Shown here: one piece after another, positions 6,542 through 64,000 of the stretch | Position numbering within the stretch: position 1 is the first letter of the stretch | Layout of the letters: each line of letters starts with the position of its first letter | IMG/VR virus record: IMGVR_UViG_3300028805_000089 | Coordinates: 1-64,000 of that record | Reading direction: 5' to 3' (one strand) | Source of the DNA: a virus | Lineage: Duplodnaviria; Caudoviricetes | DNA length: 64,000 nucleotides | Notes under the pieces: model-generated | Told to the model about the DNA's origin: nothing | Seen by the model: the letters and a program-made list of their open reading frames with translations, nothing else | The model's database searches: none | Position numbers and translations under genes: made by a program

Positions 6542-6548
6542 TCTCTGA

Positions 6549-31972: not shown

Positions 31973-31975
31973 TCC

Positions 31976-35025: not shown

Positions 35026-35361
35026 TCAGTCCTCAAAATCCCCGTATACTTCCATCGTGCTGTCGGCGCTGGCGTTGACAACCTTCACGTAATTCACCCC
35101 GCCCATCGGGACCTTGTAAAGCCCCGCCACGCTGATGCTGTCGTCAACGCTGCCGTCCAGCAGATTGATAGGGGAGTCGAACCACACCCCGTTAACGGGA
35201 TCATTCCCGGTATGTACCTTCACGGTCAGGCTTGGTATCCCGTCGCTGAGTACCGTCAGGTATAGCGCCCTCGCGCCCATCTCGTTCTTCACGGGGCCGC
35301 CGTCCGTCAGGCCGCTTCCCTTCTTAATAAATTCCGCGCTCTGTACTCTCACCCGGATCAC
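35026..35361 (-). CDS. Hypothetical late protein
   Basis: GAGGAG RBS; coupled to the holin stop. Confidence 0.65.
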   Translation of the reverse strand: MIRVRVQSAEFIKKGSGLTDGGPVKNEMGARALYLTVLSDGIPSLTVKVHTGNDPVNGVWFDSPINLLDGSVDDSISVAGLYKVPMGGVNYVKVVNASADSTMEVYGDFED

Positions 35362-35627
35362 TCCTCTTCTTTCTTCTCTTCCTCTTCACCGTCATTGCCG
35401 ACATAAACATCGCCCTCATAGAAATCCCCGCCCGCGCTGGCGGCGTCGGTGAGTCCTTCCCCGATGATGTACGCGACAACCTACGCTCCGGCCATGATAA
35501 TGCCGCTGATCTGCGTCACGGTCTGCTCGTCCATGTGCAGGGCCAGCAGCAGCCCGCTCACAAATCCCACGATTGCCATCCAGAATTTCCTGCTCGTCAG
35601 TTTGCTTACCCAGTCGATGTTCCTCAT
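35358..35627 (-). CDS. Holin-like membrane protein, 89 aa, one in-frame TAG (35481-35483)
   Basis: MRNIDWVSKLTSRKFWMAIVGF..GIIMAGA*VVAYIIGEGLTDAA..acidic tail; ends TGA; missing from the ORF track because of the TAG. Confidence 0.8.
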
Positions 35628-37381: not shown

Positions 37382-39493
37382 TCAATACCTCCACTTCAGT
37401 TTGATGAATGCCCTCGCAGAAGCCGTTGCGTAAACCACCTTGCCGATGGCCGCGTCCGGGTCGTTCACTTTCGCCAGTTTGCAGTCCGCGTCCAGGCCGA
37501 TGTAATCCCCTATGGACAGCCCTGTCAGGCCGGCCCTGTCGGCCGCGATATACCCACGCGTCTGGATGTATGTGTCGCTGGCGGTCTGGTACGCGACGAC
37601 GCCGTACACTTTGTCCAGGGCTGTGGCTTTCTGCCAGTCCTGACCGCTCCGCAGGTTGTAATACTCCACGGCGGTCCCTACGGGCAGGGAGTTTTTGACC
37701 GCGCACTGCACGTCCGCGGTGTTATAGTAAGTCGCCGGCGACGTGTTGTACATCGGCGAACTCCCGCCGCAGCCCATGATCACGATATGCGGATACGTCT
37801 GATCGGCGCCAGGGTCTTTCGATGCCGACAGTATCGTAAAATCGCAGTTGTCGAACACATACACCACCACGTCGTCCGGGTCGGTCGTCTCCAGGTAGTC
37901 GTACATGCTGAAGTTGTACCCCTTGCAGTTGTACAGGTACACCCTCGGAAGGTTGGGCAGTGAAGGCCGCGTGTGCAGCCCGCCGAGATGGCCGAAATCA
38001 ACATTATAAAATTCATATTCCATACCACACTGGGCGATCCCGGCCCCGTATGTGTGCGGAGGATTGTAGGACATCGCGCCATACGCCCGGAGGACGATGT
38101 TTTTCATGGTCCTGTGCAAAACTTTCCCGATCGGGCAGTGGAAATCGTCGTGGATGCAGTACCGGATGTTCTCCGCGAGGATCGTCAGGTTTTCGATCCC
38201 GCCTCCGCCCTGGAGGTTCAGAGTGCTGATTGCGTTCCGTACATCACTCGAATAATCGGTGGTGTTCAGAGACGCTGTCAGGATGATCTCCTCCGGCTTG
38301 CCCATGCCGATCAGGCTCATTCCGTTGAGCAGTTTCGGCCCCACGAATCCGGTCTGGTTGAAATACGCTGCCTGGATCTCCTCCTCGGTATAGTCTTCCA
38401 GCACGTCATACGTCCCCGGATAGATCTCGATGCGGTACGGGTTCAGCACATCGTTGGCGCTTGTCCCGATCGCGTCCAGCGCGTCTCTAAGATTTGTGTA
38501 ATCCCCTGTGCCGTCTTTTTTGATGCTGACCACGGTCGGCCTGATCGGCACATCCCCGAGAACGCTGACCTCGAACGTGACGGTCCGACCGTTGTTGATC
38601 GCCCCCGCGGCATATACCGCGCTAATGCTTTCCGCGTCCTCGGTCAGGGTGTATTCGTACCACGAACAGTCGCACCTTGCGGAAACAATGGTTGTATTGT
38701 CGTGCTTGTATGTGATGTTTACCCCGTCTTCCCACGGCATTGCCCCGCGCTCAATGTGGAGCACCAGCCGATCTCCCGCTTTGAAATTTCGCGTGATGGT
38801 CAGCGTCAGCCCCTGGCCGCTCGCGGCGGTCCCGCGCACGGAATAAGTCACGTACTTCCTGCCGTCAAATACCTTGGTCACGATCCCGCCGTCGGCGAAA
38901 CGCCCGAGCACATGCCCGTATGGATCCACGATGTCCAAGTCGGTCCCCGTGGCCTCGCTGTCCTTGATCAGGTCGGCGCTGTTAAAATTTTTCGTGACAA
39001 TATGCCCGTTTTCTAACCTGACAATCACGTTCCCGGAAGGGTCTGTAATGTCCAGGTCTGCCGTCCCGTCGCTATCAAGCACGCTTGGAATCTTGTTATT
39101 TATTTTATACGTTGCATCATCAGTTGCGCTCTTTAAGTCACTAACCTCCCCGCCCACGTTCACTTGCGTCCAATGGCCGGATGTCCATGCTTCGCCCGAC
39201 GCGATTGCCGTCGTACATCTGTAAAGCAGCCCGTTGTGGATAACGTAATCGCCGACGGCATATGATGCGCTGGCAGAGTACGTCGGCGCAAAGTTCGCCA
39301 CGGTATCCGTAAAATCCTGCGGAAGCGACTCCGTCAAACTCTGCGCCCTGTCGGCTGCTTCAGCCGCGATCTGTGCGTTCTCCTATGCGTTCCCGATTGC
39401 TTCAGCCCACTCGGCCTTGCTCCCGGTGTACCCTTCCTGCACCGCAATGGCATACGCGGATATCGGGCCGATTACTTTCGTCTGTGTTGCCAT
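37382..39493 (-). CDS. Receptor-binding/tailspike protein A (703 aa), one in-frame TAG (39383); pectinesterase-like C-terminal region
   Basis: N-terminus MATQTKVIGPISAYAIAV shared with the 41153 gene; CBM-like YAVGDYVIHNGLLYRC; KKDGTGDYTNLRDAL. Confidence 0.75.
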
Positions 39494-39497
39494 CTCT

Positions 39498-41063
39498 TCA
39501 TCCCTCCATGTTTGCCATACGCGCATCCGCGATGGCGCGGTCCATCTGTTCCAGCGTCCTGTGCAGTTCAGCGCTTACGTCTTCAAGCCTGCGAAGGATT
39601 TCTTCCATGCCGCCCTTGATATCATCGTCGCCGCCGCTTTCGCCCTTCTTCCCTTCGTCCCCGCCGATGCCAAGTTCCTTCTCGATCTCGTTCCACGTAA
39701 GCTAACCCACGATTCCGTCGGCCTTCAGCCCGTGATTCACCTGGAACTTCTTCACGGCCAAATCCGTCTGCGTCCCGAATATCCCGTCCGGTCTCCCGCA
39801 GTCATATCCAAGCTGGTTCAGCCACTCCTGCAGTTGCTTCACCGCGTCGCCGTTGCTGCCCTTCTTTACCGTTACCATCAGGATCACCTTTCCCGCTTCC
39901 GCGATTTCTTCCGGCGTGTAAAGTCCTTTCGGTATCCCGTAGTTCGTCCAGGATGTGTCGCTCAAGCTTCCGTACTTAACCCCGCCGTTCCCGGTGCAAT
40001 GGATGATAACGCCGTCCCCGATGTGGATTCCCGTGTGCGAATAATTTTTGTTCGCGGAGTTGTACTTAAAAAGGCAGCACACCACATTCGGCATCCCGGC
40101 GGTCTTACCGCGCTGTTCCCAGTTTCTCGGCGTTTCATACTGCGTCGTGCATCCCTCGCCGTAAAGGTCAATGCCAGCGCCATGCTCCATCACATAATGC
40201 GTAAACCCCCGGCAGTCGTAGCATTGATGCCCCTGCCACTTACACCCGTCGCAGGTCTTCTGCTTGTTCTACAGCACCGGGCATTCCCCGTAGATTTTGC
40301 TCTTATACTCCGGGCGATAACCGGCGTATTTCTTCCGCGTCTCCGGGGTGCATTCCTGCCCCCACGCGCCAAAGACATACGGGTCGCCGATTTTGCTTTC
40401 AGCCAGTTCTACCACATCCCGCGCCTTATCGTTTAACAACACTTTATCCGTCACATGCACCGCCTCCCTCAGTACCAGTCCTCCGTAGTTGTCCATCACG
40501 GCACATCCCGGATAATAAAACGCCAGAATGTCCCTGTACCAAATCCCGTGCTTCGCGGCCACCCGCGCACCGCGCTGGCTCATGCCCACGCCGTGTCCGT
40601 ACTTTTTGTGTCCGTCCTCCCTGTCCCATGGGTCTTCCTGCTCGATCAGGTAGGGATAATCCCCGCCCCACCGTTCCTTGGACGAAGTCGTTCTCCCGCC
40701 GTTGTTCGCGCTGAAGTGGGCGACGGCAATGCCGCCGCCGTACATCAGCACCTCGCCTTTGGTATCCATCGCGGCACGGTACGATATGGGATATTTCCCA
40801 TAATCACACCGCGCCGCCCGGTATGCCATCGTGGTCTATGCGTCGTCGCTCACCGCCAGCCCCCGCAGCGCCCCTCTGGATATCGCCAGACTCCGCGCCG
40901 CAACGGCCTGCGCTTTGCACGCTTCCATGCCGGACTCCCCGATTTCGGACGCGGTCACCGCCGCGACGTATTCCTCAAAGTCCACGTTTACCGTATCCCC
41001 GATATTCACCCCGAAGAATTCCGCGTTCTCCCTTTGCGTTATTCTTACCGTTATCTCAGGCAT
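39498..41063 (-). CDS. Modular endolysin (521 aa), three in-frame TAGs (40836, 40269, 39702): SpoIID-like, NlpC/P60-like and PG_binding_1 domains
   Basis: ACKAQAVAARS, HGVGMSQRGA, YDCRGF, HTGIH, DGIFG..VKKFQ..GLKADGIVG*LTW; three track ORFs join in one frame and end at TGA. Confidence 0.85.
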
Positions 41064-41152
41064 TGTCCGTCTCCTTATGCATTTAATAGGGGAGAAGCAG
41101 AAGTGACCCTGCCCCTCCCCCTTGGCAGGGAGTTGGTTACTTAAAGCCTCCG

Positions 41153-43216
41153 TCAATTGTTCAACGCCCTCGGCGAGTTGTATCTCGCAAACATCCACTG
41201 CCGCCCCTGGCTGATCAATCTCCTGATCTCATGTGTCCAGTATTCCGCCACGACCAGATTGCCGCCCGTGCCAAAGTGAAGTCCGTCATACGGATGGAGC
41301 CATGTGTGGTTTGTTGGCGTCGCACCGTCATGCGAAAATTCGCCCGTGAATTCAGCGACGCCCACCACGTTCATCGGATAAAGGGCGGCGATCTGGTGGA
41401 TCACGTTATTCGTAACGTCCACATCGCCGTTTGATGCCCACACCGTGCCAAGATAGATCCGCGCCGTGTTTTTCTGTGAAATAATTTTTGAGATGATCTT
41501 GCAATAATATCCGGTTTCGGTTTCGGCGAAATCATTATAATTGGTGTACGGAGTGACATCGGTTGATAGCGTATCGGTTAGTCCGTTGTTCGTCCCAAGC
41601 CATATAATAAAATCCTTATACTGGCTGTATGTATAGGAATCGCTATACTCGGTATACCAGTTTGATGCGGAGTACCCGCTTTTCCCGGCGTTCGTTACGG
41701 TTGCCCCCGTGAATTTTGCCAGAAATTGCGGATACGATACGTCCGTATGCGGAGGATTGCCGTTGCCGTGCCAATAGGATTCAGTCAGGCTGTCACCAAT
41801 GCACAGAACGTTTTGAAGATAATATTCGTATCTCGGTTCAAGCCGGTCAATGATTGTTCCTGAGGTAACGGAATTGTCAAGGTATGCGCTCTTAACGGTA
41901 TACCGATATGACGCAGGGAGATAGATTTTTGTGGATGACGTTGTCATCTCGCTGGCCCGGAAATATTTCGCGCCGCTCGGCACGATGATCGTGGTCAGGC
42001 AGTCAAGCTGTTTGTTCCACTGGTTCGTTGCTCCGGATATATAGGTCCGGTCGGCATCATAAAACGCGATCCCGGCGGCATCCCTATACCCGCACTGCAG
42101 TTTCATCGTGTCTGTATGGATCGGCAGGAAATCCGTATAGTTGAAATTGACGCTGTCCGTAAGTTCGCCTGTGCTCGCAACAACGTATTTGCCGGCTTTC
42201 CACAGCACGGGCATCTCAAACCACCTGTCGTATTTTTCATCCGTGCTTCCGTTCATTGCGGCGTATACGTCCTCGGCGGCAGTATAATACACCGTTACCA
42301 CGCCAAGCGTCTTTGAGCATGATATCACGATGTATTCGGCGTTAGCAGGGATCGTCGGCACGATCAGGTATGCATCCGTATATGTCCCGGTAAAACCGTC
42401 AAGATAACCCAAATCAGCATCATAAAAAGAAACGCCCGCAGAGTTGTTGTTAAGTTTGGTACGGAACCCGATCAGGTTTTTCACAGGCAGGAATGTCGTT
42501 GTGTAATAGGATGTATTGGTTGCCGCCACCCCGGTGGAATAATCCCTGTACCTGTTCTGTATCAGTGTCGGCGTATATGCCACTGCCGTGTCGATATTAT
42601 CAATCGCGCTCTTTAAGTCATCAACATCCCCCGCCAGAGCATCGGTCACCGTCTTGATTCCTGCGCTCGTTACGGGGTTGCTGCTGCCTGCGGTCGGCGT
42701 GGAGTCAAACGTCAGTTTGTCCTGTTTCCCCGTTTCCAAATCGCTGATTTGTGTACTGTGAAAGTCAACGGTCATCTGGTCGGCAGCCTGGATATTGTTT
42801 CTGGCAGCGCTCCTTTGGGCCGAAGTCAGGTTCTGGGTTTCATGCCACACGGCCTTTGAAAGGTCCTCGCCGACGCTCACCTGTACCCAATGCGCGGGTG
42901 TCCACGCTTCTGCCGTCGTGATTTTAGTAGTACACCTGTAAAGCGATCCGTAGTGGATTACATAAGCGCCGACCGCGTATGTCGAGCTGGTGGAATATGT
43001 CGGTGCAAAGTTTGCAATCGTATCCGTAAAATCATCAGGCAGCGACTCTGTCAGGTTCTACACCCTGTCTGCCGCAGCTTCTGCTGCCGCCGCGTTCGCC
43101 TACGCGTTGCCAATTTCCGCAGCCCATTCGGACTTACTGCCGGTGTATCCTTCCTGCACCGCAATGGCATACGCTGAAATAGGTCCGATCACTTTTGTCT
43201 GTGTCGCCATTTTCAT
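41153..43216 (-). CDS. Receptor-binding protein B with an SGNH/GDSL hydrolase domain, two in-frame TAGs (43100, 43058)
   Basis: Shared N-terminus with RBP A; CIGDSLT, GKSG, LGTNN, DGLH blocks. Confidence 0.8.
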
Positions 43217-43266
43217 TCCTCCTCATTTCATCAAACAGGGGACGGTTCTCCGTTCCCCGTCCTCCG

Positions 43267-44592
43267 TTACTCCATCCCCTCGCTCCCCGCCGTCTCCTCT
43301 TCGTCCTCGTACACCGGCGGCCACGTTTCCGTCGTCACGTCCGGGAAGTCGTTAACACTCGTCGCGTTGATTGTCATCGTTCCATCCTGTGCCAGACTTC
43401 TTTCAAACCCGCTCACCAGATGCCTCTCCAGCGGATATCCTTCCTTGTCCGGTCTCCGCAGCGTAATCAGTTGGTTCTCCTGTATATGGAAAATCTGCCC
43501 GCATTCGATGCTCACGTTTTTCTTCAGCGTCGTATACCGCTTCAGCCTGAACCGCGCCAGACTCTCGCACACTTCGCGGCTGTAATATCCGCTCTGCGCT
43601 TCCCTTATCAGCTTCCTGCCAAGAATATATATGTTCGTGTCGCTCTTCGGGTCGGTATTGATTGCCCTGCCGCCAATCACGCCGTGGTCGCTCAGACTTT
43701 GCCCTTCGATGATAACGTCATTGTACATTTCCCCGTTAAGGATTGTATATGTCGTGCCAAGGAACCGGCTGTTGTCCGGCGATATCTCGTATACCACCGG
43801 CTTTTCGCTGTCGTTCACGTCATCCTGACTCGGCTCCACGCAGAGCCGCCCGGTGCAGTCATACCCGATGCACCCGGCCAGCATCGTGTTCAGTTCCAGC
43901 ATCACGTCGGCATAGGTCTGTCCGGCGCTTTCAGCCCGGTATGTGTAAGGCGCGTCCGTCAGATACCCGACCGACCCGTCCTCAAGTTCCTGCGTCTTCC
44001 CATTGTAATAATCGGTAAACATCGGAGGTACGGAGTCAATCTTCAACCAGCTTTCAGGAGGGATGTTCTGTCCGTACCCCCGTGGGAGATTTAGCAGCCC
44101 CTGCATCGCCTGAAAAATCGGCGTTCCCACCGTCACCTCATAAATGCCGTCCAGATTGCCAAACAATGTCCCGTCAAGGTAACTCCACTTGTCGTACAGG
44201 TCCCACGTCACCGTGTTGCCCTACGGATCGACCGCCTCCTGCGGGTCCTTAATGTAAAACACGCCCTGCGGCAAATAGAATTCTTCGCCGTTTGGCAGCA
44301 CCAGCCCCTCACTCAACCGCACCTGCGTCCCGAACCAGATCTTGTTCACTTCATAACTGAACGCACCGTCGATGTTCGCCAGCGTCACGCTTGCGTTTCT
44401 CCTCTGCCCGTTGTTAAAGTTAACGGTCAGCGTCCCGTCCTGAATAAACGCCCTGCTCTTTGGGTTGTCCGGGTTGTTGTCAACCACAAAATTTACCGTT
44501 CCGTCGGGCCACAAAAACTCCAGTTTCGCCAGCTTCTGAAACGGCCCCTTCAGCGCCTCCAGATACAAATTCCACTTTTCGCTCTGTGTCAC
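43267..44592 (-). CDS. Tail/baseplate hub-like protein, one in-frame TAG (44221)
   Basis: Two track ORFs join (AVDP*GNTVTWDLYDKW); LPQGVFYI motif; position after the tail genes. Confidence 0.7.
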
Positions 44593-44903
44593 TCTTTCAC
44601 CCCCAGACACCCACATGATTATTTTTCAAACGAGTTTTTCTGCCATCGTAATTTTTTTCAACCGACTTCTAAACATTGCCGCAGGAGCGTCTCCATCGCC
44701 TTCTCCGTTTGGGGGCCTGGAGCGCCCGGAAAACAGTCCGGTGGACTGTTTTCAGCGAAAGGCGGGCGGTAGCCCCGGACGGTGTCAGTGCCATCGTAAG
44801 ACGCTTAGGTCACGGGACACCCCGGCCTACTTCGTCGGCCACCCCGTGGCAAGGGATGAGGTTCCCCGTCCATCCGTCAACTTCACTCTCCACTCTTCAC
44901 TCT

Positions 44904-45107
44904 TCACTCTTTTCTCCGTTTATCCCTCTTGATCTCCTGGTCCGTCCTCCGCGCCACCTTGCCGTTTCCCGTCAGCTTATACATCGGCACGACTTCGTCC
45001 AGCAGCGTCCATCCGGTCATGTCCTCATCAACCACGGTCCATCCGTCCCGCTCCTCTTTGGATGCCTCCCATATTCTCCGCTTTTCGTCAACCCTTACCC
45101 AGCACAT
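44904..45107 (-). CDS. Small hypothetical protein
   Basis: GGAGG RBS; ends TGA. Confidence 0.6.
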   Translation of the reverse strand: MCWVRVDEKRRIWEASKEERDGWTVVDEDMTGWTLLDEVVPMYKLTGNGKVARRTDQEIKRDKRRKE

Positions 45108-45119
45108 ATCCAGCCTCCG

Positions 45120-46781
45120 TCAAATATTATACGTCACGGTCAGCGTGCATCCCGCCCGCATGAATGTAAAGAATTCGGTCGGGCTGTTCATGCCCACGGC
45201 AAATCCTTTAATCGTCCCGTTCTGAAGCAGATAAAACTTTTCGGGCGGGAATTCAAACGTCCCGGTTTCTCCGGGCGCGATATACTGCATCGGCGCTCCG
45301 ACGGACAAATACCAGTCTCCGCTCTGCTATGAATAACTCCACGGGTCGCAGGATCCGGCGTAATTATGTATCGTCGCCGCCGTCAGGTTGTGATAATACG
45401 GCCTGATAACAACGCCGCTGCTGCTCCCGCCGCTGCTTGTCCTTTTGATGCTCACCGTCGCCTTGGTTATCGTGGCCCCGGCCAGCGTCTGCGCAATCGT
45501 ATCCGCGTCGTCAAACAGCCAAAGACCGGCCATATATTTTTTGCTCCCGCTGTTGTATCCCATTCTTGGATTGTTCGTTCCGTCGCCGCGCCATCCGATG
45601 GCCTTTCCAAGGTACGCCTCCGTGCCGGTCTTGGAACTCTCGGTAAAGTATCCGCTGCTGCTTGTCCATGTGCTGGTCACCTCGGTCACGGCGGGCGGTG
45701 CTTCTCCGCCGCTCGTCACCTTGGTCACCGTACCGGAGCATGTGAACGGATAACCGTTGCTCTCATACCCCGTCCCGGCGGAATCTGTCCCGGCGGGAAT
45801 CGTTCCCTTCGCGTTCACATATCCGCCGTCGGGGCTGATGACTACGCCGTTCACAAGGTTCGCAAGCGTCGTTTCGTCCGTGCTGAACGCGCCGCCAGCG
45901 CAGTCAACGATATCGGCATGCGCATGTTCCACATAGATCGCCGCGCCCGTCCGGTCGATCAGGCATCCGTCGATAAAGGCGTAGCTGCCGTCCCTCACAT
46001 AAACGCCGTATGCCTGCCCGTCGTCCCCGGCCTCGCGTTCTACGCCGTGGATTTCAATGCCGCTCACCTTCACGAATCCGTTTCCGCGCAGGTCAACCAC
46101 CGCGTCCTCCAGCACGCCCATGAACTGCGTCGTGTCCGTCCCGTCGGTATCGCCCGTGATGTTTACCCTGTTGTTCCCGGATATCACCCAGTCGCCCTTC
46201 ACCACGGCAGCCTTGTCAAGGTTCAGCGTCAGCGTCCCGTTCCCGCTGAACCCGGAGATATCCACGTCCTCGACGTATGTCCCTTCAGGTACGGCGATGA
46301 CCACATCCCCGGTCAGGTGCTTTCCAAGCCCGTCGATCACATCCTGTATTTTGCCGTTTACCGTCGCGGTCTTCGCACCCTGTATATTGATAATGTCGCC
46401 GCCGATATGCCCGTCAACCGAGAGGTTGTCAAGCACAAGGCTTACGCCGTTTTCGTCGGCTGAAATAAAAGTCTTTTTCCAGCTTCCGCTGTTCACAGCG
46501 CAGGCGTTCCCAAGCCCGTAAGCCCATTCCACCCACACGCTTTCACCCGGCTGCGCGTTGTAAAGGTCCGGCACAAACGGCACGTCGAACGGCTCTCCGA
46601 ACGCCTCCCGCACGGTCAGGACCACGTTTCCGTTTTCGTCTTCATGCGCTCCCTGTACAACGTACATTTTTTTCCTGCGCACAAAGTCCGTGGAATATTC
46701 CTTCAGGATATCCGTCACAACGTTTTCGATGCCGTTCAGCATCATTTTGTTTTCGACGATTCTGTTTCTTCCGTTATCCAT
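45120..46781 (-). CDS. Minor tail protein with a beta-helix-like region, one in-frame TAG (45327)
   Basis: Track ORFs 45327-46781 and 45120-45308 are in frame (SYS*QSGDW). Confidence 0.75.
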
Positions 46782-48570
46782 TTTGCTCGTCCGCCTTTAT
46801 CACGGTCTCGACCTTCAGTTTGCCCTCGCTGTCAATCTCAAGGTCTGCTGGAACATATTCCATGCTGTTGTCATACACCTGCTCAAGCTGACCGCCGTCG
46901 CTCATCTGAATCTCGCTGCCGACGTACCCATCGTCGTTCATCGTCCACGTCACATATCCGTCCTGATCTACGCTGATAGCCGTCGCCGTGTCGATTATGT
47001 CGTCGCCCCGCGCCATCAACCCGTCCGTCAATAGACTTACGATCTGGCAGTCCTTCGCGTCCCCGACCTCGACCCACGGAATCTCTATCTGCACGGGCTG
47101 TTCCGCGTATTTGTCCTGCGTCTCTTTCACGATGGCGTCGCTTATCTCTATCATCCGCAGGTTGCCCTTCCGGTCCCGCAGGAACTTGACGGTATTCCGC
47201 GTGCTCATGTCCATCAGATCATCGACCATCTGCACGCTGTCCCTGAACTGCGTATCCTTCACGCCGCCGACCCACGCCCGCAGCTTTCCGCTCAGTCCTT
47301 TCCGTCCCACCTTCTGCACGGTTGGGTAGGGGGTAAAGTTGTTCTCCACATACGGCGTGTTCTCATTGCTTATGCTACCGCTGTCCACGTTCGCCTGAAA
47401 CTGGTGTACGCACTTTACATGGTACAGGGTATTGTATATCGTTATATATTGTATCTCTTCTTCGTATGCACCGGCAATCGGGAATTTCATGTATTCCGTG
47501 TTGGCGGGAGTTGCTTCTATTATTGCCCAGTTCCAGTAATAGCGCATTTTCATTGGTCTTTCGGATGTCAGCGTGTATCCTTCGTAGTTCGTCGCGGCAT
47601 AATAAGCTTTGTAAATATACTCGGTATTATTGCACGCGCCGAAGTCATACATCTCCGTTTGACCGGGCGGGATCAGTCCAGCCTTTTCCACGGCGTTTGT
47701 CTGTGTGTTTATCCGGTAAATGTCCCATCCCTTTTGCGGCTGCGGCACTTCGTATCCTTCGTCCGCGCTTATCCGCAGGAAAAACGCCGGGTTATCCCGC
47801 ACATAATAAACTTCCAGATGGACCCCTTCCAGCGGCGTCTCAGGCCACGCGACGGTAAAGTCTTCCCAGTCGGTCTGCGCTGTAATCCCGTTTTCAAACG
47901 TACCGGTAAGCTGTATGGAATAATTCGTATGGTTTTTCATCAAACCATAGAAAACAAACGGGGCGCGTGACGCGTATATGTCGCCCGTGTCTTTTAATAT
48001 CTCATGCTCCGAATCCTATTTTGCCAGTTTCCATCTGTATGATATCAGCGGGTTGCCAGGTTGTTCGTCTGATATAAGTCCGCCGAAATAAGCGCAGCGT
48101 CCCTGATATAAATATCCGTTTGGTATCGTAAATGTCGGCCTTTTGCTTGTCAAAAAAAACACGGGACTGATATTGACAAGTCGTTTGAATACAAAGTCTG
48201 TACTATCGACATAAAACTGGTCTATGCGAAGTTTATAACCGTATTGATAACCGTTGACGATACCGGCGTTTGCAAGGTCTGCTGCCGTGATCGTGTCCTA
48301 AAACGGAACGGGATTCCCGCGTTCGTCCTTGCCGTATATAGGCATTTCATACACTCTTTCGGAGCCGGGTATGTGATAATACTTCGCCCTCACTTCGCTT
48401 CTGTATACTTCTGTACTTTCCGGCGTGTTTTCCAGAATAAAGAACTGCCACGAAACCATCGGCTGCGTCCCGTTAATCTGCCACGTCACCGTCATATCCT
48501 GTGTCGCGTCTATAACGCCCGTCCCGTTAAGCTATGACGGCGTAATGACGGTCGGTTGATAAAGCCCCAT
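46774..48570 (-). CDS. Distal tail-like protein (598 aa), three in-frame TAGs (48532, 48298, 48016)
   Basis: AGGAGG RBS; MGLYQPTVITPS*LNGTGVIDATQDMTVTWQING; no TAA/TGA in frame until 46774. Confidence 0.75.
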
Positions 48571-48961: not shown

Positions 48962-51900
48962 TTACCTGTTTCTGTACAGCCTGTGCCTGCCCAGAATGTC
49001 CGTCATCGTTTTCGCGTCGCTTCCGTCAATCGTGATGCCGTCCACGATAATCGTCGTGCTTTGGTCCACGCTTGAATAGCTTCCGTACTTGCCCTGCTCC
49101 GGCGAATACTTGCCGATGTCGCCCACCGTAATGGCGTCCCACGTCGGGGCCAGCGCGTACAGCGCGTCAAGCAGTTTCACGGTCCCTTCCATCTGCGCAA
49201 CGTAATTCTCTCCGGCACCCATCATTTTCTGAAGCGCGTCCGTCAGGCTTTCCAGCGGCACCTCCACAGCGTCCACCAGTCTCTGGTAATACTTGTCGAG
49301 GTCGTCGTAGGTCTGCTGCAGCTTGTCCAGCGCATCCTGCAATGGGTCGATGCTCTCTCCGTACTCGTACTCAATTTTCGTCCTCTCATGCTCAAGGTCT
49401 TCCTGCTTGCGTTCGATTACTTCCTCCTGATCCTCAAGCGCTTCGATTTGTTCCTTGTACTGGTCTTCGATGGCATCCCGTTCCCGCTTCAGCGTCGTGA
49501 TTTCAAAGTCGGCCAGCGCGTCAGCATACGCCTCCTCGGCCTCCTTAATCGCCTTCGCGTCGGCCATCCATTCCCATTGCCCGGTTTCTTCATTAAAGTA
49601 CCTTATCGTCCTCTGGTGCCTTGCGTCCTCCAGCGCCTGCCGTTTTTCCTCAAGGTCGATGTTTTCCTTGTTGATGTCCCGCTCTTTTTCAAGCCGCTCT
49701 ATTTCCTTGTTCAGCGGTTTGATGGCGTCGTCCCTCGCCCTTTCAAGCAGCGTCACTTCATACTGCAGCATCGACAGGCTGTAGTCCAAATCCTCCAGTT
49801 CCTCTTCGATGGGCTTGAGCAATTCATCCCTTGCCCGTTCGATGGCCGTGATATCATCCTGATAACTATCGATCTGGTACTGGATTTTCTTCAGCCCATA
49901 ATCGATATACTTCCGAATGATATCCCAGAAATCTTCCTGTTCTCCTTCGTCGCTGCTCTGGGTTTGGGAACCCTGGCTCTGTTCCCATTCCTCGCGTTCG
50001 CTCTTTTTTTCTTCTTCGTCCTTCTTTTTATCCGGAGGAGGGGTCACGGTCAACTTCGTGGAATCTCCGAACATTTTGCCGAAGAATCCTCCCACAAGGT
50101 CCATGAAGTTATTCCCGCCGTTTGTTCCGTCGGCATAAGCGGGGATGCTCATCTTTCCGCCAAGCAGCGACGCCGTTTCCTTCGCGGTATAGATCGTCGC
50201 GCCTTTCGGGATCTTTGCGATAGTCGGGAATCCGTTTGCGTAAATCTACGCCAGCCCATTCCCGGCAACCAACTCCGGCCCTTCCTCGTTGATCAGGGCA
50301 TATCCGCCTTTGAAGTCGGAAGCGCCGTTTGCCGCCTTTGGTAGGTTGAACAAGTCTTTGAGTCCTTCAAGAACGCCGCCTGACGGCGATTTTGTATTCG
50401 TCGTTACGGTTATCGTCTTGTTCTTGATTCCCTCCAGCGTGGTTTTCAGGCGGTTCAGTTTGCTCTGGCTGTCAGAAACGTTTGCGTTAACGCTGAAACT
50501 GATTGTCCTTTCGATAAATTCCTGAAGTTCTTCAATGGACTCAAGTTCTGTATAAGCGTTTCCTTCAGCGTCAATGGTCAGCGTGGTATGTTTTCCGTTC
50601 CCTTGCGTATCGCCAAAGAATTCGTCGATGATTTGCGTCCCGTCGCCCTCAGTTACAATCTTGACCCTGTGAACGGTACCGGCAGCTTCATCGATTTCCG
50701 TAATAATGTCCATAACGGCGTCGCTGTCTTCCACCTGGAATTGCGCGGTGTATACCATCGTGCCGTCTTCAGTCATAAACGAATCTTCGCTGAGTTTGAT
50801 TCCGGCGACCGGAAGTTCAGCTGGATTTTGCCCAAGATTAGCCTGCACAACAGAGGAAGCTTCTTCTGCGGCACTCTTTGCAGAAGACTCATCGGCTGTC
50901 ACTTTCAGTTCTATCCCGGCATACATATCTTTAAGCGATCTGCCCTTCGTGGGATCAGGAGAACCGGTGTTCAGCGGACTTGAGGGATTTAATATCGGAC
51001 TTAAAGCAAATAGCGACCCGGTGAATGGGTCATCATCAAAAACGGCGCTCAAATGATAATGATAAGATTCGTCTGTAGTATTGATGCTGTCGGCAATCAG
51101 TTTTTGTGCCGCCGCGACGCCCGCCTCGACGCCGTCAGTTGTTGCTTCCAGATCATAAGTGCCAAACTCGCCGCTGTTTACCGCTCCCGTGCTGGTCACT
51201 ACATTTTTTTCGACTTTATCAAGGGCTTCGACGGCACCGTCATCATTTCCCGTAACATTGATAACAGCCTTGTTGCTTGCGGCGTTGGCTTTTTCTTCTG
51301 CGGTTACGACGACCTGGTCGGCCTTATTATTAAATTTATCGAGATCGCCGTCATAATGGATCATCCGTACCGTTTGCGTCGGCCCGTTTGCGGTTTCTTC
51401 AAGTATAACGATCATAGCGTTCAGCATATCGCCGTTCGCGCTGTATTCAATCTCCCTTACACCTAAAACAGAATTGGCGTTTGCGTCCGTGATCGAAAGA
51501 TTTGCCACCTGACCGTTTGTCTTGTAATAAATATCGCGAATGCGTCCGGCTTGATTGGCAATAAATTCCACGTCCTGAATATTATCGATCTGTCCGTCCG
51601 TCGTGAATGTAACATGTCTGTCTTTTGTCAATGTGTCCATGTTCCATTCAAACACGTCCGCGTCTCTTAACGTGCCGTCCGTATAAAAGCCGACTTTCCG
51701 TTGCGTTATATTCGCCAGCGTTGTATCTATGACGTCGATATTGTTGACTTTGCCGGTAGAGTCAAACTGTATTGTTCTGGTCTCGGCGGCGGCTTCGGCA
51801 CCGGCAAGTATTTTGTCGATTGTCATTTGCGCTGTGCCGTCCTGATCGACTTCAAAACTGATTTTGTATGTCGTGCCGTCGTTTTCAAATATGTTTAATC

Positions 51901-54900
51901 CATTCGGCGTCTATGCGGCTGTCGCCATTCCGCTGTTGTTGATAAGCTTTCTGAGATACTCCCAATCCGCGTCGTTTCCGGATGCGTCTTTGATTGCCGT
52001 GATTTTACCTTCGACCATTTCAAGGGAACCGCCTGCGGCCTCGGCGGCCGCCTGCATTCTCGCAAGCATTTTGTCGGCTCCCTCGGCATTCCCGTTCAGA
52101 CGCATCTGGTCAAGATACGCGTTCATGGACGCGACCTGCTCGGTCACGTTTTCATATCCGCTTACGTCAACGGGCAGTCCAAGCGCTTCCGGTGTACTTT
52201 CGGCGGCGATCTGCGCGGCGTTTGAGAGTTCTTCCCGGACGGTCTGCGCGTCTTCCGCAGCATGCTCCGTGGCGTCTTCCATTTTTTCGGTGTAATCGGC
52301 GTAATTTTGCCATCCGCCCTCAACGTCAGGAACACCTTGTATCTCGACTTCGCCGATTTCGTTCAGCAGATAAAGCCATTCCTTCATCTGCATCCACTCG
52401 GATGAACCCATTCCGGAATTCTCGGCGAACGCAAGCAGCTTGTCATAATCTATTGTCAGCAGACCTTCTTCTGTTTCAGCCGCAAACCCGGCTGCCTTGC
52501 CCATTTCCTTCAGTTGTGCCGTGAAATTTTTTACGTCCGATTCAAGGTCGCCGTATACGCCCAGGGCCTTGATGGCATCCCATGTCTGATCGATACTGAG
52601 ATGAGTCGCCTCGGCAAGCCCCTGCAAATCAGAAACGGTAAACTCTATTTGCCCGTTTACTTCTTTGTAGGACGCGACGACTTTGTCATTCAGCTTGATC
52701 TCGCCCGTCTTCTTGTCGGCGATTTTTGCAAGCACGGCAAGGAATCCCTCGCCGTAAGTCTTTTCCGCGTCGCCGTACATTGTTTTGTACGGTCCGTTTG
52801 CCATGAACGCGTTGACGCCCTTATAACCTTTTTCGCGGTACAGCGTATCGAAATCCGTCCCGCTCCCGGCCATCAAATATCGCGCCGCAGCCATTGCTTT
52901 CTGGCTGTTCACGCGTCCCGCCTCGATCTCCTCGGCGTATGTCGCGTATGCGCTCTGGTAATCCGCGAATCCTTTATTTTCCGCGTCGCGTTCCATTGCG
53001 GCGTCAAAGGCCGTCTTGGCTTTTGTCGCGGCGCTTAATGCGGCTGTAAGTTTGTTTACGCTTGCGGCTGCTTTATCGGTACTATTTGCCATTCCGGCGG
53101 CACCATCGAATTCGGTAATCCTTAACCATTCTTTATATACTTGCGGATACCTCTACGCAAATAATTCGAGAAACGCTGTTCTTATATATTTGGCATAACC
53201 CGGATAATTGTTTTCGTCAATTGTATTGAATAGCGTTTCCATTTCTCTTGCATATTCGCGCAGCGTATCTATATCTACATCTCCACCGGAATTAATAATG
53301 CCTTGTAAATTCTCCAGTTTAACCCAGTTTGGATTATCTATCTACATTAGGGAATTTGCCGCCGAATCAACATAGGCGTTTAATGCTGTTGACGCTCTTT
53401 CGTATGCGTCACTCGCGTCATCTAAATACTCAACGATTCGTGAGTAGCTTGGAACATCTGTCGCCTTAATATGATTGTCTAAGGCGTATTGCTCTATTTT
53501 AGCTTTTAAAAGCTTTACAGATTCGTACTGCTCATAAAGTTCTTTTGCATCAAGTCTCCAATAATCAGTTAACCACGCGGTATAAGATGGTTGATTCGTT
53601 CCCTATGGTGTAATAATATTGGCAATTTCTTCTCTGAAACCATCGAAAAGCTCTTTTAATTCATCTGTGTCGCCAAAGAAAAAACGATATGTCTTTGGCG
53701 TAAGTGGAACAGACATAACAGAAGTGCGGTTAAATTCATCAAGAGCGCCCTTGGCCGCCGCTTCGGCTGCCTTTATTTGCTCTTTTGTCATTTGACGAAT
53801 TTCGTCTCCCGCAGCTATCGCTTGATCTCTCGTTAGGCCAAGTGCGTCCGCCAATGCATAAAGTGCGGTGGTATACTCTTCCGTTCCTTCTTTGGCGGTT
53901 AAAAAATTGGCGTAAAGAGTCATTGTTTCAGTACTGTTTTGATTTGCTTTTTGTCCTGCTGCTACGGCGGCTTTTGCCTGTTTTTCAACATTCGCATTGT
54001 AATCCTGCAAAAGTTTATTTGCAACGCTTATTGCAACACCAGCAGCGGTCACAGCAAGTCCAAACCCTCGAATGTTTCCTGTCATGCCGGTGACCCAATT
54101 TGTATCTCTTCCGGTAAATCCAGCCCATAACGTTGCAATTCTTTGTGCTTTCAATGCCGTTACCAATCCAAGTACGATGGTTAGTGCATTTGCTAAATTG
54201 CCGACAGCTTGAACTGTGCCGTTTAACAAATCGAGAACGCCCTTGATCATTCCGGTAGAAACCGTATTATTGACCAGCGCGACCCAGCTTGCCTTCAATC
54301 GTTCCGTCTTGACGGTGATGGAATCCAAAGAGTTTTGTACCTCCCGGTCGATACTCCCGCTGGCACCTTCGTAGGTCTTCAGCATGCTCTCGTACATGTC
54401 CCAGTTCTTGATGAGTACCATCAACTGGTTTGTGCGCAGCTTGCCGCCGATATCGCTGACCATGCTGAACAGTTTCGCCTCGGTCAGGATGCCCTGCTGA
54501 TAGGATTTTGCCAACGCCCCGATGGCCTCCATCGGGTCGATCAGCGTTCCGGTCGCTTCGGCGGCGCGTACCACTTCGGGCGCGTACAGTTCCAGCACCT
54601 GGCGAAGTCCTTCTATTTCGCCTGCCGTCCATTTCGCGCCGTCCTCGATCTCCGTGGTCGTGTCGCCCATGATGTTCAGGAAAATTGCGCGGAGGGCGGT
54701 CGCCGCTTCGGTGCCGCTCCTCTGCGTAACGGCGGTAACGGTGCCAAGGGCGGCGGTCAGTTCGTTGATGCCTACGTGCGCGGTGGAAGCGATGGTCGCC
54801 AGTTTACCGATACCGGCGCTGATCTCTGCCACGTTCGTGGCGTATTCGTTGCCGATCTGGTTCGCGCCGTCCATCGCGGCGGTCAGGGCCTGGATGTTGC

Positions 54901-55423
54901 CGTTCAGCCCGTAAGCCTTGTCGATGGCCAGGATGTACTGGTTCGCAACGTCTGCGCTCACGTCGCCTGCCCTTTGCAGTTTAACGCTCAGTTCCGCAAG
55001 CCCCTCTGCCTGGTCCTTGTAACCTGCGCGTGTAAAGTCGGCCACGCCTGAAAGGTACTTGGACGCAGCTACGCCGTATGCCTGCGCCACCTTCATAGCG
55101 TTCTGCGTCATTCCGGCAAGTTCTTCGTTTGTCTTTCCGGTCACACGGCGTACCACGACCAGTTCGTCGTCGATGGCCTTGATTTCCTGATACGCGCTTT
55201 TCAGATTATTTGTAAACGTCTTCCACAATTTCGTGCCAAGGCTGTTCAGCATGTTTTCGTACAGTCTCGTGGTATAACCCACCATCTGGTTAGCCGCTTG
55301 CCCCATTCGTCCGCCCAGATTGATATTCGCCTGCTGCTGCAGCTGATTTAACTGCTGCTGAAGCCCGGCGACGACCGCCGACATATTGTCTACTGCGTTA
55401 ATATTTACGGTTACGGTTGCCAT
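48962..55423 (-). CDS. Tape measure protein (2153 aa), five in-frame TAGs (53603, 53342, 53153, 51911, 50246)
   Basis: TP901-type core (IDDELVVVRRVTG..GNEYAT..LRAIF); EEGPELV..*..IPKGATIY; four track ORFs in one frame, gaps read manually and free of TAA/TGA. Confidence 0.9.
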
Positions 55424-56203: not shown

Positions 56204-57274
56204 TCAGGCGGTAACGACCACGTTGGCCACAACACTCAGGTCGCCGTTTTCCACGGTGATCTCCGTGTTACCGGCGGCCGCGCCGGTCAGCACGCCCTTG
56301 TCGGAAACGGTCGCCTTGGAAGTGTCGGTCACGGTGTAGGTCAGGTCGCTGTAGTCCGGCTGCACCAGGCTGTCGTCGGCCATGACGTACTTCACGGGGA
56401 CCTGCACGGACTGCGAGGCGGCAACGGTCACGACGCCGCCGACGATGGCCATGCCCTTCACGTCCACCAGAGCGCCGCCCACGGGCATATCCACCATGTA
56501 AGCAAGGGCAAAGGACGCTTCGTCCACGCAGATGCCCTCGGCGGCAGCCTCTTCATAAGGCAGAGCGGAACCGGACAGGGTGTCAACATCAGCGTCGGTC
56601 TGGTCGCCCTTCACAGGCGCTTCGCCCTTGAACTGCATCCTCGGAATCCAGATGTAGCGGTCGCCCCACTTGGTGCCCTTGGTGCTGCCCTGGCCCTGAG
56701 TGGTGTACAGCGGCATACGGATCATGCAGATTTCGATGTTGGGTTCAAACACGCTGTCAACGCGCAGCTGATGGGCACTGGCGGCGCGGACGAAGTACCG
56801 CACGCAGTAGGTCTCGCCGACCACGGGAACGAAGTCCTACACGGCCTTGGTAGTGGGATCGATTTCGAAAGCGACGCCGCTCTTGTCCACGAAACCGTAA
56901 ATCTTGTCGGTTCCGTAGGGAGCCACGGGGGTCTGACTCACGATCAGCGCGGTCGCGCCGGAAGCGACGGTAATGGTCTCCAGTACGGGGATGATTCCGT
57001 TGTAGCTGAGTTCGCCGCCGACGGACAAGGCACGGCTCTCCAGGGTGGAGGTCGCGGCGGTGATTTCCAGTTCCAGCTTGGCGCTGTCAGGCAGGTTCAA
57101 CAGGACGGGGTTCCGCAGGGAGCCGTTGATCTCGCCCATGTTGGTGCTGGTTGTCAGACTGTTGGTCTGGATTTTGTTGGAATAGAAATCCAGGTTGAAA
57201 GTGGACGGGTTGAAAAGCCAAACGTCCATAGTGCCTTTCGCATAAATGGGAGTACTGTTGGTTGCGTAAGCCAT
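56204..57274 (-). CDS. Major tail protein paralog 1 with an Ig-like C-terminus, one in-frame TAG (56837)
   Basis: Track ORFs join at KAV*DFVPVVGETY; collinear with paralog 2. Confidence 0.75.
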
Positions 57275-57291
57275 AATCTTACATCTCCTCT

Positions 57292-58383
57292 TTAATCATT
57301 TGTAACATAAACAACAAGCGGCGCGAAATACGTTTCACCGTTCACGGTAATTCGCGCATCAACGTGTCCCATACCGGGACCTACGGCCATGAATATGCCG
57401 CTTTTTTCAAGCTGTCTTCCGGACGTCACAACAGTAGTCGGCCCGATATCGTACCTAAACAAACTGTAATCCGGTTGGGCCAGCGTTCCGTCCTTCATTA
57501 CATATTTAAGCGGAACGGTTGCAGACTGGCCGACTTTCATTTCCATATATCCGCCAACCATTACGATGCCTTCAAAATCGGCCCACGGTCCGGCTGCAGG
57601 CATGTCTACCATATACGCCAGCGCGAAGGACGCTTCGTCCACGCATACACCTTCGGCAGCCGCTTCCTCATAGGGAAGGGCGCTTCCGGACAGCGTGTCC
57701 ACATCGGCGTCGGTCTGGTCGCCTTTCACGGGCGCTTCACCCTTGAACTGCATCCGGGGAATCCAGATATACCGGTCTCCCCATTTCGTACCCTGTGTGC
57801 TTCCCTGTCCCTGGGTCGTATACAGCGGCATCCTTATCATGCATATCTCAATATTCGGCTCAAACACCGAATCGATACGCAATTGATGTGCGCTTGCGGC
57901 CTTCACAAAGTACCGCACACAATAAGTTTCACCGGCAGTCGCGGCGAAGTTTTTCACCTTCCGTGTGTCCGCGTCGATCTCGTAGGCGATGCCGCTCTTG
58001 TCCACAAATCCGTACACCGTGTCCGTGCCATAAGGCGCGACAGGGGTCTGACTTACGGTCAAATCAGCGCCGGACGCCGTAACGGTTTCCAGCACGGGAA
58101 TAATCCCGTTATACGTCAGTTCTCCGCCCACGCTCAATGCGCGGCTCTCAAGCGTCGATGTGGCTGCGGTAATCTCCAGTTCCAGTTTCGCGCTGTCCGG
58201 AAGGTTCAGCAGAACAGGGTTTCTCAGCTAACCGTTGATCTCTCCCATATTGGTCGAGGTCGTCAGGCTGTTCGTCTGCACCTTGTTGCTGTAAAAGTCA
58301 AGGTTGAACGTGGCCGGGTTAAACAGCCACACGTCCATCGTTCCCTTGGCATAAACAGGCGGGCTGTTTGTCGCGTAAGCCAT
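57292..58383 (-). CDS. Major tail protein paralog 2, one in-frame TAG (58228)
   Basis: MAYATNSPPVYAKGTMDVWLF..EING*LRNP; AAGGAG RBS. Confidence 0.75.
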
Positions 58384-59811: not shown

Positions 59812-61170
59812 TCAATACCCGTACACGTTCACCGTCACGGTCTTTTCCATTCCGTGCGATGCAGCGCTTACGGTAATTTCACCCGGCAGGAATCCGGTAA
59901 CCGTTATCCGGTTCCCGTCCTGCTCCCATGACGCCGCGTTCATGTCCCATGTCCTCACGGTATATTCAACGGCTTCTTCGGTCTTCACGCCGCCGACAAA
60001 CCACGCGGCCTCCAGAGTAACACTCTGGTATTGTGCGCATTTCTCGGCCTTCTGCAGCCATTCAAGCCCTTCGATGATTTCCCCGTCCACCGTGATTGCG
60101 GCCTCGCAGGTTATCTTTTCGTTCTCCTCAAGTGTAGCGCGGATGACGCATTCGCCCTCGCCGACGGTCGTAATAACACCGTCTCCGTTTACCGTCGCCA
60201 CGTTCTCGTCCGTGCTTTCATACCGCCATGTCAGCGGATATTCTCCCAGCCGTTCCACTCCTCCGTCAGCGGTCGTTCCGTAGGTCACGCCGTCAATGAT
60301 GGATAGTATCTGGCCGTTTCGCACGGTCTCGATCCCGGTCTGATAAGTTTTGCCGGGAATCGCTTTTGCGGGAACGCCCGTAAACGAGGCGTGCATGTCA
60401 AAACTTTTTCCGTCGGCCACCCTGTTCTCCAGGTCGTCGCTTTCGATGGGTTCCTGGCTCTGCAAGTCGAAATACAGGATATGCGTGGAATCCGCGTTCC
60501 CTGTCTCGCTCTGCAAAAAGTCGATCAGGCCCCTCACCATATAAGCCATCGTCCCAAGGATCATCCGGCGGTTCGTCAGCAGGTCCTTCGTATCCTCGTT
60601 CAGCTGCATCACGCATTTCTGGTAAAGGTTCGGGGATACGATGTAGTCCATATATTCGTTTGCGCTGGCCTGGCTCTGGTTCTTCGCCCAGTAAAACGGC
60701 TCTTCCTTGATGTTGCCGTAAAAGTCCAGCCGCCGCCATGTCACGTTGCACCTTCTGCACACCGCAGTCGCCTGCGCTCCGTTCGCTTCGTCCGGGTTCT
60801 ACACGATGTATGTATCCCCGTTCACTTCGATCTTCGCGCCAAGCCCCACGGCGTTGATCTTTGAACTTTCAAACTTTATCTTTTTCCAGTCCTCAATGAT
60901 ATTGGTGGTCGTGCCGTGCCTTACCATGACCTACATACGAATCCGCGTCCTGAACCATTTATAAAAATCGTCCTCGTCGATACCCTGGACCCGCGCCATG
61001 TACATATCCTACGCGTATTTCAGATTCCTGTTGTTGTAATCCGATGTGTTCCGCGTGAACCCGTACTACCTCTGCAGCCCTTCGTTTTCGGAAGGGGATT
61101 TCACCCCGGCGCGTTTTCTGTACGGCACCATGCTCTTCGCGTTGCCTATCCTTTTCTCTATCCCTTCCAC
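59812..61170 (-). CDS. Structural protein with a C-terminal Ig-like domain, four in-frame TAGs (61066, 61009, 60931, 60799)
   Basis: AAGGAGGAG RBS and GTG 61170; frame open to TGA 59812 apart from the TAGs; STDENVATVNGDG Big_2 motif. Confidence 0.75.
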
Positions 61171-61283: not shown

Positions 61284-61982
61284 TCAAACCGGAGGTTTAA
61301 ATTTCTTCCCGCTCGGCAGCGTCTCCATTGCCGCCAGCCCCTGCTCAAAGCTGACCAACGCGCTGTTCAGTTGCCCGTAAATCGTCTTCAGCCTTTCCGT
61401 TCCCTTGGCGATCCAGTTGCTCTCGTTGCCCACGTCAAAGCTGTCGTCCTTTATCTTCGGCGTCCTCGGGAGAAAGTCGTTGTTGAACCTCCGCTCCCAT
61501 ACGTACTGTACGCACAGTCCCAGAATGTTCTTCATTTCGTCCGTCAGGTCGTTCTCAAAATACCCGTCGGTATAGAAATCGAACTGCACGCTCCTGCCGC
61601 CCTCCACTACCTGGTTCACGGTTACGCTCCCGGTCTCCGGGTCGTATGTGATATCAAGCGGCACATACACCGGCGTACCAAGGTCGTCTTCTTCGATCAC
61701 CCCGGCGCTGCATATTTCAAACCCCGTGATTCCCGTCTCGATCACGTCGCCCTAATCCAGCATCGTGGTCGTTTCGATTTCCGTATCCTCCCAGTCCGGG
61801 TCCGTGTGGGCAAGCCATGTTTTCGCCTCCGGTGGCCGGTTGAACATCGGTATTCCGTTCTTCATGTACAGCGCCATCTTCCTGAAGAATCCGGCGGGGT
61901 TCTCGTCCATCTCGTCCTGAAGACGCACGTCTTCTTGCTGCACCATAAAATAGTCGCAGATGATCTCCGTATATGCTGTCAT
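61284..61982 (-). CDS. Head-tail connector-like protein, one in-frame TAG (61752)
   Basis: Track ORFs join at TTMLD*GDVIETG; AAGGGGGG RBS. Confidence 0.65.
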
Positions 61983-63431: not shown

Positions 63432-64000
63432 TCAAAACGCCGCGTCCTTCGCGTTCAGCTTCTCGATCACGCTGTAAAACGCGCCCTGTTTCGGGAACTT
63501 CGGGTCCTGCTTGCTCAGTTCGTTCAGCGCCACCACCAGCTGCCTGTTGTGTGCGCTCGGATGGTTCTCTTCAAACCCGGAAATGAACCTCCGGGCGATC
63601 ATTTCCTTATGCTCGTGGCACAGTGCCGGAAATACGGCGATCAGGTCTTCGCCCATGTCAAGCATTTTCACAAACGCCTTTTCGTCCAGGAGTTCCCCTT
63701 CCCGGTACATGCAGTTGTTCATTTCCCGCTCTTCGTCCGTAAGCCCGGAAAGGACAATCAGCATCCGCTTTTTGATAAAGCCCTTCATGCTCTCGTCCAG
63801 GAACTTGCTCCATTCGCTCTTCGGTACGGAAGCGTACCCGGTCTTCCCGGTGATGCTCCCGTACACGCCGTTCGGTCCCAGATTCAGCACGTTCTCCTCG
63901 GCCACCTCTGCCTGCCAGCGGAGGTTCACCTTCTCCACGTCGGCCATTACCTGGACCACCTGCGGCTTGGCCATCGCCAACTGCTCCTGCATCATCTGAA
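63432..64000 (-). CDS. Hypothetical late protein, 5' end outside the window
   Basis: Open frame to the window edge; ends TGA. Confidence 0.7.
   Translation of the reverse strand, partial: QMMQEQLAMAKPQVVQVMADVEKVNLRWQAEVAEENVLNLGPNGVYGSITGKTGYASVPKSEWSKFLDESMKGFIKKRMLIVLSGLTDEEREMNNCMYREGELLDEKAFVKMLDMGEDLIAVFPALCHEHKEMIARRFISGFEENHPSAHNRQLVVALNELSKQDPKFPKQGAFYSVIEKLNAKDAAF

Follow-up and report, generated by a model that had tools for sequence, protein, structure and literature searches.

What residue does an amber codon specify when it falls in the middle of an otherwise invariant stretch of a virion protein? The question is raised by two minus-strand phage genes coding for tail-tube paralogs, of which the first (56204-57274; YomU-like) has the Ser codon TCC as its codon 52 (57119-57121) and the second (57292-58383) has TAG at the same codon (58228-58230), which we read as Ser. 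Matches to the PF27173 YomU_Tube family were recovered on homologs of these paralogs. As described in an earlier note on this DNA, the two proteins are identical over 54 residues (36-89) with position 52 as the single exception, and the synonymous divergence reported there is also real: 30 of the 54 codons in the shared block differ, with a nucleotide identity of 78%. Hence, the block has been held by purifying selection and is not the product of a recent duplication. In the column of TAG 58228, Ser is present in 33 of 34 close homologs and Ala in the other one, more distant homologs have Gly or Ser, and Gln is seen in none of 99 homologs; the codons that relatives use here are TCG, TCC, TCT or AGT. 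Paralog 1 has an amber codon of its own (56837-56839), which lies opposite Lys in the other paralog, as had been pointed out, and occupies a column rich in Lys and Gln.

The window, i.e. the whole stretch of 64,000 nucleotides that was analyzed, corresponds to bases 1-64000 of an 88,717-bp viral contig, and numbers above 64000 continue along that contig beyond the window. At least the first 100 bases of the contig are repeated at its end, and its CheckV completeness is 100%. Early functions (integrase, recombinase, methylases, helicase and ThyX) are encoded on the plus strand up to about 34.9 kb, and the head, tail and lysis genes on the minus strand, between about 74 and 35 kb; two tyrosine integrases and an attP-like site are also present. 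The contig represents the complete 88.7-kb genome of a temperate siphophage whose virion genes are SPbeta-like (Yom/Yon). The late genes of its relatives display the same order of Pfam families (YomU tube, YomN, YomW, YonB and YonD) as the SPbeta-like temperate siphophages, from which the present phages differ in their size of about 89 kb, their probable infection of Clostridia and the presence of recoding in one subclade only. Judging from sequence relationships, the host is probably a gut Clostridia bacterium using the standard code: distant prophage relatives sit in Flavonifractor, Flintibacter and Ruminococcus assemblies, and recoding is absent from these Clostridia prophages; an IS-borne tnpB of the phage, described below, ends in TAG. 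We also observed a gene for a class V aminotransferase (cysteine desulfurase-like) adjoining one of the PAPS-reductase family (76370-78956, minus strand; L001 12370-14956), and an early-region cluster of tRNAs for Ile(UAU) and two Thr(UGU) (31901-32131, plus strand); a Clostridia MAG locus, L061, has tRNAs for Gln, Ile(UAU), Thr(UGU) and Ser(UGA) in a row.

The earlier count of 24 in-frame TAGs in the window, all in late genes, proved correct, and the whole genome has 29, spanning 34.9-76 kb; none that is credible was found elsewhere, including the early genes. These 29 make up a small share of the roughly 700 Ser codons of the late genes, and the probable capsid gene, the portal gene and several other late genes are free of TAG. 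All the TAG-bearing genes lie on the minus strand, and single TAG coordinates below denote the lowest base of the codon. In the holin (phrog_297; 35358-35627), the TAG at 35481-35483 falls in the second hydrophobic segment, in agreement with the transmembrane position given in the earlier note, in a column with Thr, Ala, Ser and Ser among the homologs, the Flintibacter prophage having Ser. The genes for the tail-fibre/receptor-binding protein, cell-wall hydrolase and distal tail proteins (37382-46781) contain TAGs at 39383, 39702, 40269, 40836, 43058, 43100, 44221 and 45327. A tail protein (46774-48570) has three, at 48532, 48298 and 48016: codon 13 is Ser in all 19 close homologs, codon 91 is Thr in 17 and Ser in 12, and the variable codon 185 is Ala in 14 and Gln in 6. 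The gene for the 2153-residue tape measure protein (48962-55423) has TAGs at 50246, 51911, 53153, 53342 and 53603; those of its columns that fall in poorly aligned stretches carry no information and were dropped by the stricter filters described below. A 452-residue Ig-domain virion protein (59812-61170) has TAGs at 60799, 60931 and 61009, in Ser/Thr columns, and at 61066, in a conserved Gln column; its homolog P0109, which is 82% identical, has Gln, Ser, Ser and Ser at the four sites. A further late gene (61284-61982) bears TAG 61752, common to all four recoded phages identified here, and another (63432-64000) is truncated by the end of the window. Beyond the window, a 603-residue protein that, by its position, is probably the large terminase (70759-72570; no family match) has TAGs at 72391 and 71899, with the homologs showing Gly in 40, Ser in 14 and Thr in 5 at codon 224; the other TAGs lie at 67514, 74721 and 75583.

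When TAG is read through, 57 ORFs collapse to 38, and the coding cover of the late region rises from 0.87 to 0.93. Most of the TAGs are shared, at identical columns, with between one and three relatives that were assembled independently, and hence are not assembly errors. Outside the late region, with about 79 genes, TAG clearly serves as a terminator only in an IS605-type tnpB (13223-14374, plus strand), besides two weak short ORFs; homology in TnpB stops at residue 380, directly before the terminal TAG, and the protein would gain about 31 residues with the suppressor on.

To identify the residue, we performed a Codetta-style analysis in which the late proteins of four recoded phages, namely that of the window (W) and the relatives A (JGI 3300041553), B (ERZ28655101) and C, were aligned with standard-code relatives and database homologs. 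The profiles were built without the recoded loci, and the log-odds were summed per codon under five filters; in calibration, 61 of 61 sense codons were decoded correctly. Across the 12 to 35 TAG columns retained, Ser took the first rank whichever filter was applied, leading Gln by 27-36 nats, with Thr as the runner-up 7-9 nats behind in the pooled sets. The 35 columns gave scores of 6.6 for Ser, -2.8 for Thr and -29.5 for Gln, and the 12 best-aligned ones 11.8, 2.4 and -20.2, respectively; the window alone, with 20 columns, gave +10.8 for Ser and -18.0 for Gln. Ser was also on top for W, A and B each taken separately, under all five filters, while C by itself, with just one or two usable columns, allows no conclusion. 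When true sites for Gln, Thr, Tyr, Leu, Lys, Ala, Glu and Trp were resampled, none of 20,000 trials reached the observed margin. Readings of TAG as Tyr, Leu, Lys, Glu, Trp, Ala or Thr were rejected on this resampling.

Codon exchanges among the recoded phages are in line with these columns. At 24 well-aligned sites, TAG is swapped with Ser codons 13 times (TCG in 6, TCC and AGC in 3 each, TCT in 1), with Gln codons 4 times, with Thr codons twice and with others 5 times, and true Ser codons show a synonymous swap rate about equal to that of TAG. For instance, A has TCC opposite TAG 39383 and TCG opposite TAG 45327, and B has TCG at TAG 50246 of the tape measure gene. At TAG 43058, B has CAG, and we confirmed that this TAG also faces the CAG at 39341 within the window, the pairing that had been cited against serine.

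The adaptor for such a reading lies 10 kb outside the window. ARAGORN found no CUA tRNA within the 64 kb, and a search of the rest of the genome, suggested in the earlier note, uncovered one at 74105-74192 on the minus strand (Rfam score 56 bits), followed downstream by a tRNA-Asn(GUU) (73825-73898, minus strand). It is the only CUA tRNA in the genome, and is of class II, with G73, C72, G2-C71, G4-C69 (R4-Y69), C11-G24, G30-C40 and a long variable arm, in addition to G1-C72 and A3-U70. All seven determinants in the table of bacterial Ser identity elements of Giege and Eriani 2023 (PMC9976931) are present in it, and Ser identity does not depend on the anticodon (PMC9976931). Among the 25 phage records listed as matching it, the 22 that are annotated are all tRNA-Ser, and in two host-like genomes the genes that match it best are those of tRNA-Ser(UGA). 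The pairing of the variable-arm stem is preserved between phages through a two-sided change. The recoded relatives A and B have a near-identical tRNA(CUA) at the same place, A's copy encoding the CCA, and the standard-code relative L060 has no tRNA at the corresponding place. ARAGORN, going by the anticodon only, labels this gene as a pyrrolysine tRNA, a label contradicted by its long variable arm and 5-bp anticodon stem; tRNA-Pyl has a very short variable loop and a 6-bp anticodon stem (PMC4695839). The spacer of about 170 nucleotides between the two tRNAs (73900-74100, minus strand; L002 ~1400-1600) is highly conserved in W, A and B; it matched no Rfam family and may encode a structured RNA or contain a small ORF.

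We found no class II synthetase match in the genome and no RF-1 family match (PF00472) to a release factor in this 100%-complete record; hence, the tRNA would have to depend on the host SerRS and compete with the host RF1. The SerRS, being blind to the anticodon, would charge the phage tRNA with Ser, which would then be delivered to the 29 TAGs in virion, packaging and lysis genes. With the homolog columns favoring Ser over Gln and a CUA tRNA of the Ser type at hand, the serine part of the earlier proposal is upheld, and we consider it very likely, on sequence evidence, that the phage reads TAG as Ser in its virion and lysis genes by means of its own Ser-type tRNA charged by the host SerRS.

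A pattern search for comparable tRNAs served as a control. Long-arm CUA tRNAs were recovered from 17 further viral contigs; in most of these, the 1:72 pair is weak or mismatched and the flanks are seemingly TAG-recoded. Among the latter, a small sample in which both directions were counted, 8 swaps of TAG involve Gln codons and none a Ser codon. Thus, the test is able to return Gln, and a long arm is not diagnostic by itself; the argument that a long variable arm and G73 alone prove Ser is refuted by these contigs. At the level of sequence, it is the acceptor and D stems that distinguish the tRNA-Ser(CUA) of our phage from the control tRNAs. In L067, L068, L071-L079 and L081, which combine long-arm CUA tRNAs and a weak or mismatched 1:72 pair with TAGs that swap with Gln, the suppressors seem to carry Gln. 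Other variants include a CUA tRNA with a Ser-like body and U73 (L083 1954-2041), one with a Leu-like body and A73 (L082 7086-7172), two CUA tRNAs in a 608-kb contig (L069 4091-4256), and a supD-like CUA tRNA gene (L070 7318-7407).

Of the alternatives, the one that survives best, though we regard it as improbable, is an ambiguous reading, in which TAG is read as Ser for the most part but with an appreciable fraction of Gln, introduced by mischarging by the host GlnRS or by a near-cognate tRNA-Gln, or in which a relic of an earlier Gln phase persists. It draws on TAG 61066-61068, whose column has Gln in 34 of the 38 homologs having a residue there and which is fixed as TAG in W, A and B, and on the observation that under loose filters the TAG sites reach lower scores than Ser codons typically do (P ~0.01-0.05). 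Under the strict filter there is no deficit for Ser versus Gln (P 0.29), and a somewhat poorer fit under the loose ones is as expected of codons that arose recently. Moreover, phage C, which lies outside W/A/B and is itself recoded, with a TAG opposite a TCC of the window, keeps CAG at the 61066 column. The simplest order of events is hence that the Ser code came first and was followed by one CAG-to-TAG transition, with TAG 61066 representing a Gln-to-Ser change that postdates the code. Columns with a Gln majority amount to 2 of 16 after filtering, where Ser codons have about 3%; the excess is weak and is readily put down to mutation.

The reading of TAG as Gln throughout (translation table 15), as in the crAss-like, Lak, Garnet and Topaz phages, has the precedent of being the common and validated phage amber code. 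The same conserved Gln column, the four CAG-TAG swaps, and the occurrence of long-arm CUA tRNAs with G73 in phages whose TAGs swap with Gln also speak for it. Nevertheless, we hold it to be very unlikely: it falls 27-36 nats under Ser in the pooled columns, would place Gln in invariant Ser columns and in the Gly/Ser column of the probable terminase, and has to contend with a sole CUA tRNA displaying G1-C72, A3-U70 and C11-G24 rather than the weak 1:72 pair of a Gln-type acceptor stem. As CAG is the transition neighbor of TAG, one-step Gln-to-Ser substitutions are to be expected under the Ser code. Finally, that the TAGs are real stops in a decayed prophage, split genes or assembly errors, with the tRNA a bystander, might be suggested by the temperate look of the genome and the splitting of the TAG genes by standard gene callers, but can be set aside as hardly credible, given that the same TAGs, with the protein conserved before and after them, occur in assemblies made independently in different studies, that TAG alone breaks the compared genes, of which standard-code relatives hold full-length homologs, and that the tRNA(CUA) co-occurs with recoding in the relatives.

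Returning to the reading of TAG as Ser, the placement of the tRNA gene bears on when such a code would come into force. Upstream of it we found a promoter with an 11/12 match to the sigma-A type (74291-74263, minus strand) and a terminator-like hairpin (74226-74201, minus strand) ending about 9 nucleotides before the start of the tRNA. This stretch of about 100 nucleotides, comprising promoter, leader and hairpin, is nearly invariant in W, A and B, and a predicted alternative hairpin in the leader overlaps the 5' arm of the terminator. The leader matched no Rfam family, and terminator-like patterns in the region are not enriched (5 against 4.7 in shuffles). A short inverted repeat that encloses a second TTGACT immediately before the -35 box (about 74295-74310, minus strand; L002 ~1795-1810), kept through a two-sided change in A and B, is a possible operator. 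In the standard-code relative, the -35 hexamer and the GTGCCAA motif are both the same, and the first late gene is preceded at a short distance by a hairpin with a U-tract; no tRNAs are present in this leader, and its -10 box is non-consensus. From this one standard-code comparison we infer that the tRNA cassette was probably inserted behind a pre-existing late-gene leader. In lambda, the pR'-tR' region consists of a strong housekeeping-type promoter, a short leader and a terminator that precedes the late operon. The layout of the promoter-leader-hairpin of the present phage is alike, with the difference that an antiterminator protein was not identified in it.

The tRNA(CUA) is the first gene past the promoter, leader and terminator-like hairpin, at the head of the late genes. 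Late transcription passing the terminator would turn the code on, and before that, in the lysogen or in early infection, the holin and virion proteins would stay truncated. We regard it as an even bet that the code switch is timed in this manner by late transcription through the terminator. Two TAG-bearing genes (74325-74807 and 75451-75870) lie upstream of the tRNA promoter and are not explained by a strict late gate. The more encompassing proposal, that this is an undescribed and independently evolved temperate gut clade with TAG as Ser, in which the late operon and the new code are started together by read-through of one terminator, is offered tentatively, as somewhat less probable than the timing itself.

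In a FastTree phylogeny of six concatenated late proteins, midpoint rooted and with the locus L014 dropping out, W, A, B and C form one branch among standard-code phages (support 1.0), with C outside W/A/B. Matches of the tail-tube alignment in IMG/VR and JGI are nearly all distant (42-56%) and standard-code, and scans of IMG/VR with the exact tRNA and with single proteins gave no matches. The recoded B and C have a NUMOD-type homing endonuclease and a small HTH gene on the opposite strand after the capsid (L009 1547-2781; L034 3427-4664), an insertion absent from the phage of the window. As to the source of the tRNA, the attP-like site (6546-6606, minus strand) comprises the 3' portion of a tRNA-Ser(GCU) with a hairpin behind it, has short flanking repeats near 6376 and 6647, and is flanked by the two integrases (5061-6008, plus strand; 6677-7786, minus strand). 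It finds matches in 68 of 151 Flavonifractor-order genomes at 75-83% identity; the four best of these are tRNA-Ser(GCU) genes, and a tRNA-Ser(UGA) adjoins the tRNA-Ser(GCU) target in three of the four host loci checked. It is conceivable, if speculative, that the phage captured a Ser tRNA close to its attachment site; the same 151 genomes held no close bacterial donor of the tRNA(CUA) (E 1e-4).

The earlier note had further taken TAG as Ser to be a possible new phage code. The novelty does not stand: Bezerra et al. 2015 (PMC4695839) credit Ivanova et al. 2014 (Science 344:909) with the prediction that phage UAG is read as Ser and as Gln, with a Ser-tRNA(CUA). By that account, the amber-to-Ser phages of Ivanova et al. 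share with ours both the UAG assignment and a phage-encoded Ser-tRNA(CUA), and differ in also encoding an RF2, which has no match in the present phage. The remark that no validated TAG=Ser phage code is known still holds, as the sole proteomic validation that we found is of Gln at phage in-frame TAGs (Peters, PMC9523058). Our literature search returned no experimental test or clade description of phage TAG=Ser, the prediction itself being known to us through PMC4695839. Borges et al. (bioRxiv 10.1101/2021.08.26.457843) reported only TAG-to-Gln and TGA-to-Trp changes in phages with a code other than that of the host, and inferred that GlnRS and TrpRS lend themselves especially well to repurposing. 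The code-15 gut phages, which include the crAss-like, Lak and Agate phages and the temperate Garnet and Topaz (bioRxiv 10.1101/2021.08.26.457843; Yutin PMC7886860; PMC9523058), resemble the present phage in having in-frame stops mostly in late structural and lysis genes, a stop-free integrase, a phage suppressor tRNA, a host that in our case probably uses the standard code, and standard-code sister clades; they differ in the residue, which is Ser here, and in our tRNA having the full Ser identity set.

TAG=Ser in this phage is hence a case of a rare, predicted and apparently unvalidated kind and not a new code. What is new, as far as we could find, is its occurrence in a temperate SPbeta-like clade that probably infects Clostridia, with the suppressor tRNA behind a promoter-terminator leader. 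A cellular parallel is furnished by the E. coli suppressor supD (serU), a tRNA-Ser changed from CGA to CUA, which has a class II body and is charged by the anticodon-blind SerRS. It shares the class II Ser body and CUA anticodon with the phage tRNA, but supD is a host mutation suppressing nonsense alleles, whereas in the present case the tRNA is encoded by a phage, whose own essential genes rely on it.

The Ser case contradicts the glutamine-only picture of the large later survey of gut phages, and points to a second route to reassignment, via an anticodon-blind synthetase. A default annotation under code 15 would put the wrong residue in the proteins of this phage, and the combination of G1-C72, A3-U70 and C11-G24, as against a weak 1:72 pair, may quickly sort phage amber tRNAs into those for Ser and for Gln. 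With close standard-code sisters and ongoing swaps between TAG and TCG, the steps of a reassignment can be followed in this clade. Moreover, the position of the tRNA(CUA) offers a testable answer as to when a phage changes its code, and read-through of the late terminator, if true, would supply a mechanism for the timing of the switch.
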